Assembly (NCBI RefSeq): GCF_003334405.1
Contig: NZ_QOWM01000002.1
Origin: Escherichia coli
GTDB lineage: Bacteria; Pseudomonadota; Gammaproteobacteria; Enterobacterales; Enterobacteriaceae
Reading direction: 5' to 3' (one strand)
DNA: 64,000 bases
Shown here: piece after piece, positions 52,723 to 52,797 of the stretch
Layout of the letters: each line of letters opens with the position of its first letter
Position numbering within the stretch: position 1 is the stretch's first letter
Made by a program: the position numbers and the translations under genes
Notes under the pieces: generated by a model
What the model was told of the DNA's origin: nothing
The model's input: only the letters and a program-made list of their open reading frames with translations
The model's database searches: none

Positions 52723-52740
52723 TGTAAAATAATATATACA
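52723..52740. promoter_or_regulatory. TyrR box upstream of mtr
   Basis: TGTAAA-ATAATA-TATACA matches TGTAAA-N6-TTTACA with one mismatch. Confidence 0.5.
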
Positions 52741-52771
52741 GCCCCGATTTTTACCATCGGGGCTTTTTTTC
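52739..52771 (+). terminator. deaD intrinsic terminator
   Basis: CAGCCCCGAT-TTTTACC-ATCGGGGCTTTTTTT. Confidence 0.75.
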
Positions 52772-52779
52772 TGTCTTTT

Positions 52780-52797
52780 GTACTCGTGTACTGGTAC
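52780..52797. promoter_or_regulatory. TrpR operator-like palindrome in mtr promoter
   Basis: GTACTCGTGTACTGGTAC about 55-70 bp upstream of the mtr ATG. Confidence 0.45.

Follow-up and report, generated by a model that had tools for sequence, protein, structure and literature searches.

The deaD–mtr intergenic region of Escherichia coli is the characterised promoter and control region of mtr, the tryptophan permease gene; it is compact, strongly conserved and ordinary, and the deaD terminator sits within it between the TyrR activator site and the mtr promoter. We consider it very probable that two independent functions, termination of deaD transcription and the mtr promoter, lie end to end in the 153-bp spacer between the genes, with almost no spare DNA. 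The regulatory sites of mtr and their roles (class I activation by TyrR and repression by TrpR) are already known and have been published since 1991. What our analysis adds to this known region is a cross-species footprint, RNA covariation in the hairpin, a fixed module length and a reading of the -10 region as an extended -10. The activation of mtr by TyrR, its repression by TrpR and the box geometry are taken from the literature, and the elements, statistics, conservation, covariation and spacing were computed here.

The window, by which we mean the whole 64-kb stretch of DNA that was analysed, had previously been given a sequence-only reading that named a TyrR box, a terminator hairpin and a TrpR-like palindrome. 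All three elements come from the deaD–mtr intergenic region, which is of the K-12 type. Positions 52400-53100 are 100% identical to K-12-type genomes, the region is present in 5426 of 5426 complete E. coli genomes, and the RefSeq annotation of identical genomes places the deaD 3' end first and then mtr. In MG1655 both genes lie on the minus strand (deaD at 3305971-3307860, mtr at 3304573-3305817), so that an MG1655 coordinate equals 3358668 minus the window coordinate. The C-terminus of DeaD (...RRRFGGDA before the stop) is kept in related species, and ACTGGAGA, at the Shine-Dalgarno and start region of mtr, is conserved (Table 1).

Table 1. Elements of the deaD–mtr region, in window coordinates and, where available, relative to the predicted mtr start.
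Feature	Position	Strand	Relative to predicted mtr start	Remarks
Candidate weak (distal) TyrR box CGTAATCATCGCTGAACA	52693..52710	.		8/12 matches, G and C present; covers the deaD stop codon TAA
deaD stop codon TAA	52695..52697	+		Open reading frame list and RefSeq annotation; deaD CDS 50808-52697
Strong (proximal) TyrR box TGTAAAATAATATATACA	52723..52740	.	centre about -75.5	11/12 matches to TGTAAAN6TTTACA; about 4 helical turns upstream of the -35 region
Predicted deaD intrinsic terminator hairpin	52740..52764	+	-67 to -43	Stem 52740-52748/52756-52764, 9 bp, 6 G-C; loop 52749-52755
T7 run, terminator U-tract	52764..52770	+	about -43 to -37	Nearly invariant in 75 distinct sequences
Predicted weak -35 region, CTGTCT (18-bp spacer) or TGTCTT (17-bp spacer)	52771..52777	+		Placed from the -10 position; poor TTGACA match, poorly conserved
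TrpR operator GTACTCGTGTACTGGTAC	52780..52797	.	centre about -18.5	Flanked TGTAC...GTACA at 52779-52798; covers spacer and -10
Predicted extended -10	52792..52800	+		TG 52792-52793, n, TACAGT 52795-52800; from sequence and conservation
Predicted mtr transcription start	52806..52808	+		From the -10 position alone; MG1655 3305862-3305860
mtr Shine-Dalgarno and start codon	52837..52853	+		GGAGAG 52837-52842, ATG 52851-52853; mtr CDS 52851-54095; sequence, open reading frame list, annotation

The strong TyrR box is an 18-bp palindrome with the G and C expected of such boxes at positions 2 and 17. It is the sole match to TGTAAAN6TTTACA with at most one mismatch in the 64 kb, where 0.15 would be expected by chance and where 14 of 100 shuffles of the window contained at least one. 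When two mismatches are allowed it is still the only match in the window, against 2.07 expected; given that many chance matches, a consensus match by itself would be only suggestive. We accept the box because it is conserved, scoring at least 9/12 at the same position in 73 of 77 other species. The sequence-only reading had placed a TyrR box at exactly this position and had proposed scanning for sites of both regulators as a check. A consensus search for TyrR sites returned 52723-52740 as the sole match in the window, and the TrpR matrix scan described below placed 52780-52797 first.

A candidate for the weak, distal TyrR box lies further upstream over the deaD stop codon, and its sequence is presumably one of those given in published TyrR-box lists. 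It was the best and sole candidate in the 75 bp upstream of the strong box under a filter of at least 7/12 matches plus the G and C positions, and its centre is 30 bp (about three helical turns) upstream of the strong-box centre. The filter is passed in E. coli proper only, and the box is degraded in E. whittamii and in Escherichia sp. E1V33 (right arm TGATTA). As the match is poor (8/12) and absent outside E. coli, the assignment of the weak box to 52693-52710 is the least secure part of our reading, and we treat it as a candidate. The overlapping 18-mer CGCTGAACAGCGAACACA (52702-52719, 3-bp gap) was rejected as the weak box, since it matches at 5/12 by manual count, below the 7/12 threshold, and would be spaced at odds with the 8 bp given in the literature. 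The gap between the stop codon and the strong box is often just 9–18 bp in other species. Just 3' of the deaD stop, within the region of the weak box, there is also a small hairpin, CGCUG-AACA-CAGCG at 52701-52714 (-5.3 kcal/mol, z = -3.0), whose conservation beyond Escherichia, Salmonella and Citrobacter is not obvious.

The two boxes fit the published geometry of mtr, which we compared through a secondary description (PMC4374768). There, the strong TyrR box is promoter-proximal and centred 42 bp upstream of the -35, the weak distal box lies 8 bp further up, and TyrR activates mtr with Phe/Tyr through contact with the alpha-CTD (PMC4374768). The 12-bp gap that we find between the weak and strong 18-mers is the same as those 8 bp counted between 22-bp boxes, and the strong-box centre at 52731.5 stands 43 bp, or about four turns, from the predicted -35 centre at 52774.5. 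TyrR is a class I activator, and activation by it needs a strong box upstream of the -35 (PMC7142922).

Immediately downstream of the strong box, a terminator scan found AGCCCCGAT-TTTTACC-ATCGGGGCT at 52740-52764, followed by TTTTTT; the stem arms are AGCCCCGAU and AUCGGGGCU, with a 7-nt loop. The hairpin starts 43 nt past the deaD TAA, on the sense strand, and has the sequence properties of an intrinsic terminator. Its folding energy is -15.5 kcal/mol (z = -4.98), and none of 200 shuffles was equally stable. The sequence-only reading had put the hairpin at 52739-52771, which is right to within 1 nt (stem 52740-52764 plus the T7 run to 52770). Its further claim, that the TyrR box overlaps the hairpin, survives as a single shared base: C52739 is unpaired, so that box and stem share A52740 alone and abut rather than overlap.

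Conservation of this hairpin follows base pairing. Among 75 distinct sequences, 97.2% of cells are paired when read as plus-strand RNA, compared with 92.7% when read as minus-strand RNA; compensatory double changes occur in 6 of the 10 pairs. Neither the observed pairing nor the covariation was equalled by any of 500 shuffles, and sliding the partner by 1–3 columns brought pairing to 53% or less. These are compensatory substitutions of the kind expected of an RNA structure, and the excess of G.U cells (47) over A.C cells (13) argues for selection on the plus-strand RNA and not on duplex DNA. With the mtr start placed downstream of the hairpin, the hairpin RNA can only be the deaD 3' end. Rfam searches of the region gave terminator-like matches only, all far below the gathering score. 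By sequence, then, the hairpin and its nearly invariant U-run read as the canonical intrinsic terminator of deaD. It resembles other canonical intrinsic terminators in its G+C-rich 9-bp stem, its short loop, the U7 directly after it and its position past a stop codon on the same strand. Unlike them, it occupies part of the DNA from which the following promoter is activated, and its total length seems to be under constraint too.

The sequence-only reading also proposed a TrpR-like palindrome at 52780-52797, 9 bp beyond the terminator, and both the site and the gap (52771-52779, 9 nt) hold up. The palindrome GTACTCGTGTACTGGTAC differs from the trp operator at four positions, and a search allowing up to three mismatches therefore finds nothing in the window. 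We instead scored the window with a symmetric matrix derived from three MG1655 operators, those of trp, aroH and trpR. Over about 64,000 positions the palindrome came first at 16.7 bits, against 7.2 for the next best, a score reached anywhere in 5 of 200 dinucleotide shuffles of the whole 64 kb. It is a palindrome with GNACT/AGTNC arms that carries 8 of the 8 positions invariant in the trp, aroH and trpR operators. Its arms are invariant in 75 sequences, with variation at the central positions 52785-52787 only. That TrpR represses mtr and TyrR activates it is stated in PMC5343134, which confines both links to Enterobacterales, and again in PMC7142922.

The operator overlaps the conserved TGnTACAGT at 52792-52800, and its right arm (ACTGGTACAGT) would double as an extended -10, TG-n-TACAGT. 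Across species, ACTGGTACA is invariant; the hexamer is TACAGT or TACAAT nearly everywhere (TACAAT in many genera), an invariant TGG precedes it, and conservation stops 2 nt past it. From this conservation of TGnTACAGT we infer the -35, the -10 and the start of the mtr promoter. The predicted -35 is poor and variable, as expected of an activator-dependent extended -10 promoter. With the operator arm as the extended -10, the terminator would fall within the promoter upstream region, flanked by the activator site on one side and the -35 on the other. The supplementary text of the transcript-end studies that we searched, as far as it was searchable (Adams 2021, Dar & Sorek 2018, Yan 2018, Choe 2022, TERMITe 2025, Ettwiller 2016 and Conway 2014), held no record of an mtr transcription start or 5' end, and its Term-seq and SMRT-Cappable-seq portions held none of a deaD 3' end.

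Other assignments for this stretch were tried and rejected. A reading of the T-run as an UP element finds no support: positions -46..-38 are GGCTTTTTT and -57..-47 are TTTACCATCGG, and neither resembles the UP subsite consensus. TTGTAC-16-TGCAAT (52778-52805) was discarded as the mtr promoter on the grounds that TGCAAT is not conserved, whereas TACAGT/TACAAT is, and that the strong box would then stand 49 bp from the -35, where the literature gives 42. A sigma-54-like reading of TGGTAC...TGCA has its GG-to-GC spacing off by one, and its downstream part is not conserved.

Read as the TyrR site of mtr, the deaD terminator and the TrpR operator of mtr, the three elements are thus supported, with a geometry that fits PMC4374768 and roles given in PMC5343134 and PMC7142922. 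Two features of the earlier description need adjusting. It had about 75 bp serving as both terminator and dual control region; the elements are confirmed, but the control region is longer than 75 bp, taking in the candidate weak box at 52693-52710 and a predicted core promoter inside the operator. It had also labelled the region a dual-repressor/activator one, which is correct as to the TyrR and TrpR sites, but the TyrR boxes at mtr are activator sites and not classical operators. The candidate weak TyrR box over the deaD stop, the operator arm as extended -10 and the position of the terminator inside the promoter upstream region were absent from it.

To place these elements in an evolutionary frame, we used a protein-anchored scan with one genome per species, which gave 80 mtr loci from Enterobacteriaceae. 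Enough upstream sequence was available at 77 of them, and in every one of these the gene preceding mtr is deaD. The aligned spacer contains one near-identical block with divergent flanks on both sides; the block begins with the TyrR box, takes in the hairpin and the T-run, and ends with TGTACTCnTGTACTGGTACA(G/A)T. Box, hairpin, T-run and operator form a rigid module in 77 Enterobacteriaceae species; in those that retain the box, its first base and that of the operator are 57±1 bp apart (63 sequences with 57 bp, 10 with 56 bp and one with 58 bp). The distances on either side are variable by comparison (9–28 bp from stop codon to box and 29–56 bp from operator to ATG). Three Cedecea species and Shimwellia have no TyrR box and keep the hairpin, the T-run and the TrpR operator, which indicates that the terminator does not need TyrR. 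In these four species the sequence suggests that TyrR control of mtr may have been lost or may be absent, with a tandem hairpin in its stead in Cedecea. The Cedecea sequences have a second stem-loop (CTGCCG...CGGCAG) at the TyrR-box position, about 60–100 nt upstream of mtr.

Variation within E. coli leaves the same elements intact. Over the 121 bp at 52690-52810, some 45% of E. coli genomes show a difference of 1–5% from the window, and five alleles carry SNPs at 52716, 52720, 52752-52755, 52775 and 52786-52787. These fall in the spacer between the boxes, the loop, one base of the -35 region (C52775T) and two central operator bases; further SNPs lie downstream of the -10. None of the five alleles has a SNP in the strong box, the stem, the T-run, the operator arms or the -10.

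A more drastic allele is found in E. coli strain 405, where an IS200C (tnpA annotated; 2575-3290 of that locus) sits in the T-run of the deaD terminator at window position ~52769/52770, after GGGGCTTTTTT. The same junction, matched over its full length, occurs in 17 of 5426 complete E. coli genomes. In these alleles the core promoter and TrpR operator of mtr are intact, and the terminator and both TyrR boxes stand about 0.7 kb upstream of them. We predict that the IS200C alleles would have lost activation by TyrR and retained repression by TrpR.

We envision the following arrangement. Transcripts of deaD would form the 52740-52764 hairpin and stop within the U-run (52764-52770), and this termination would insulate mtr from the strongly expressed helicase gene upstream. 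The mtr promoter, adjoining the terminator, would be of the sigma-70 type with a poor -35 and an extended -10, starting probably at about 52807, some 40 bp past the U-run. Trp-bound TrpR on 52780-52797 would cover the TG motif and half of the -10 hexamer and so exclude RNA polymerase. TyrR would stimulate the promoter from four helical turns upstream, and the weak box at 52693-52710, three turns further up, may help activation in E. coli only. The DNA of the terminator would then act as a spacer of roughly four turns that holds TyrR on the proper side of the DNA helix. Such a phasing spacer is the simplest explanation for a module whose length is fixed despite drift in the loop, and we infer a constraint on spacer length as the cause of that fixed length.

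How closely are the two functions tied? The terminator might belong to the mtr promoter itself and not merely adjoin it, and so be under two constraints, with its RNA ending deaD and its DNA, of a fixed 25 nt plus the T-run, setting the four-turn phasing; this strikes us as very unlikely. If it were true, deaD transcription and TyrR occupancy could affect each other through polymerase re-use, cold-shock read-through or roadblocking.

A functional coupling of terminator and promoter is likewise something that we hold to be very unlikely, in any of three versions. Polymerase released at the U-run, 37–43 bp upstream of the mtr start, could be re-used at the mtr promoter; polymerase can remain on DNA after termination. 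Read-through, for example by cold-shock antitermination, could drive mtr independently of TyrR and TrpR, and Csp proteins can antiterminate. TyrR bound to the 3' untranslated DNA of deaD could act as a roadblock and influence deaD 3'-end formation. The position of the terminator inside the promoter upstream region, the rigidity of the whole unit in 74 sequences and the fact that both TyrR boxes lie on DNA crossed by every polymerase transcribing deaD are consistent with such coupling. However, the hairpin and U7 look strong and unconditional, the helical phasing of a class I activator is a simpler account of the fixed length, and four species keep the terminator and operator without a TyrR box. 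Text searches for a deaD–mtr link in expression, terminators or cold shock returned nothing relevant, and those for the exact site sequences returned one primer in an unrelated paper and nothing else.

An assignment of the hairpin to mtr, either as a leader or attenuator transcribed from an upstream promoter or as a DNA cruciform or protein site for TyrR action, is extremely improbable. The sequence upstream of the hairpin does contain a promoter-like TGAACA-17-AATAAT at 52705-52733, but this is at chance level (0.7 expected from shuffles), its hexamers fall in the non-conserved weak box and the spacer of the TyrR box, and a start about 7 nt later would lie inside the stem. There is neither a leader peptide nor Trp codons, and the weak match to the Rfam Trp_leader family covers the terminator only and reaches 20 bits, well short of the gathering score of 41. 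A cruciform or protein site is at odds with the G.U excess, which points to selection on the plus-strand RNA, and a role in TyrR action with the species that keep the hairpin and have no TyrR box. Finally, the view that the TyrR box and the TrpR palindrome resemble such sites by accident and that the true ones are in other places, which could appeal to the 2.07 TyrR matches expected per window at up to two mismatches and to the four mismatches of the palindrome from the trp operator, is almost certainly wrong, in that both sites are conserved nearly base for base in about 20 genera whereas the flanking spacer and 5' UTR diverge, the palindrome ranks first in the TrpR matrix scan by 9 bits, and the geometry agrees with the published description (PMC4374768).

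Two functions placed end to end, the reading that we prefer, can be set against known systems. The published E. coli K-12 mtr region, as summarised in PMC4374768, is the same DNA with no sequence difference. In it, as in our description, two TyrR boxes precede the -35, a strong one near the promoter and a weak one farther away, and a TrpR operator covers the core promoter, which in our case is a predicted one. Among promoters with class I activation by TyrR, tyrP and aroP P3 depend on a strong box that precedes the -35 and lies on the proper helical face (PMC7142922), an arrangement that mtr would share; compared by secondary descriptions, mtr differs from them in having the terminator of the upstream gene between the box and the -35.

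The trp, aroH and trpR operators share with that of mtr an 18-bp palindrome, GNACT arms and an overlap with the core promoter, the latter at mtr being a predicted one. The mtr operator is without the CTAG cores of the other three, having CTCG and CTGG instead, and scores 16.7 bits against 23–27. Of these four TrpR promoters, mtr is the only one with an upstream TyrR activator site. The studies of mtr regulation are reportedly those of Heatwole & Somerville (1991), Sarsero, Wookey & Pittard (1991), Sarsero & Pittard (1991) and Yang et al. (1996, 1997). In MG1655, the TrpR operator of aroH, GTACTAGAGAACTAGTGC (264-285 of the extracted upstream region), overlaps the stop codon TAG of ppsR, and that of trpR (295-314 of the extracted upstream region) starts 24 nt past the slt stop. 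A G/C-rich hairpin, GGGGGAGGCATTTTGCTTCCCCC, lies downstream of the trpR operator, in the trpR leader.

Overall, the importance of this region beyond annotation is small, and its compaction is an illustration rather than a discovery. As an illustration, it could serve as a textbook example of dense packing: within about 110 bp, a stop codon lies in a candidate weak activator site, a TyrR box abuts a terminator stem, the terminator may act as a spacer, and an operator would double as an extended -10. Promoters regulated by TrpR may in general stand tight against the gene that precedes them. At the level of single bases, the cross-species footprint supports the classical genetic assignments at mtr. 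It also points to the parts that are labile in evolution, namely the weak TyrR box everywhere outside E. coli and the TyrR box as a whole in Cedecea and Shimwellia. The IS200C alleles, in turn, would be natural mutants of E. coli that separate activation of mtr by TyrR from its repression by TrpR.
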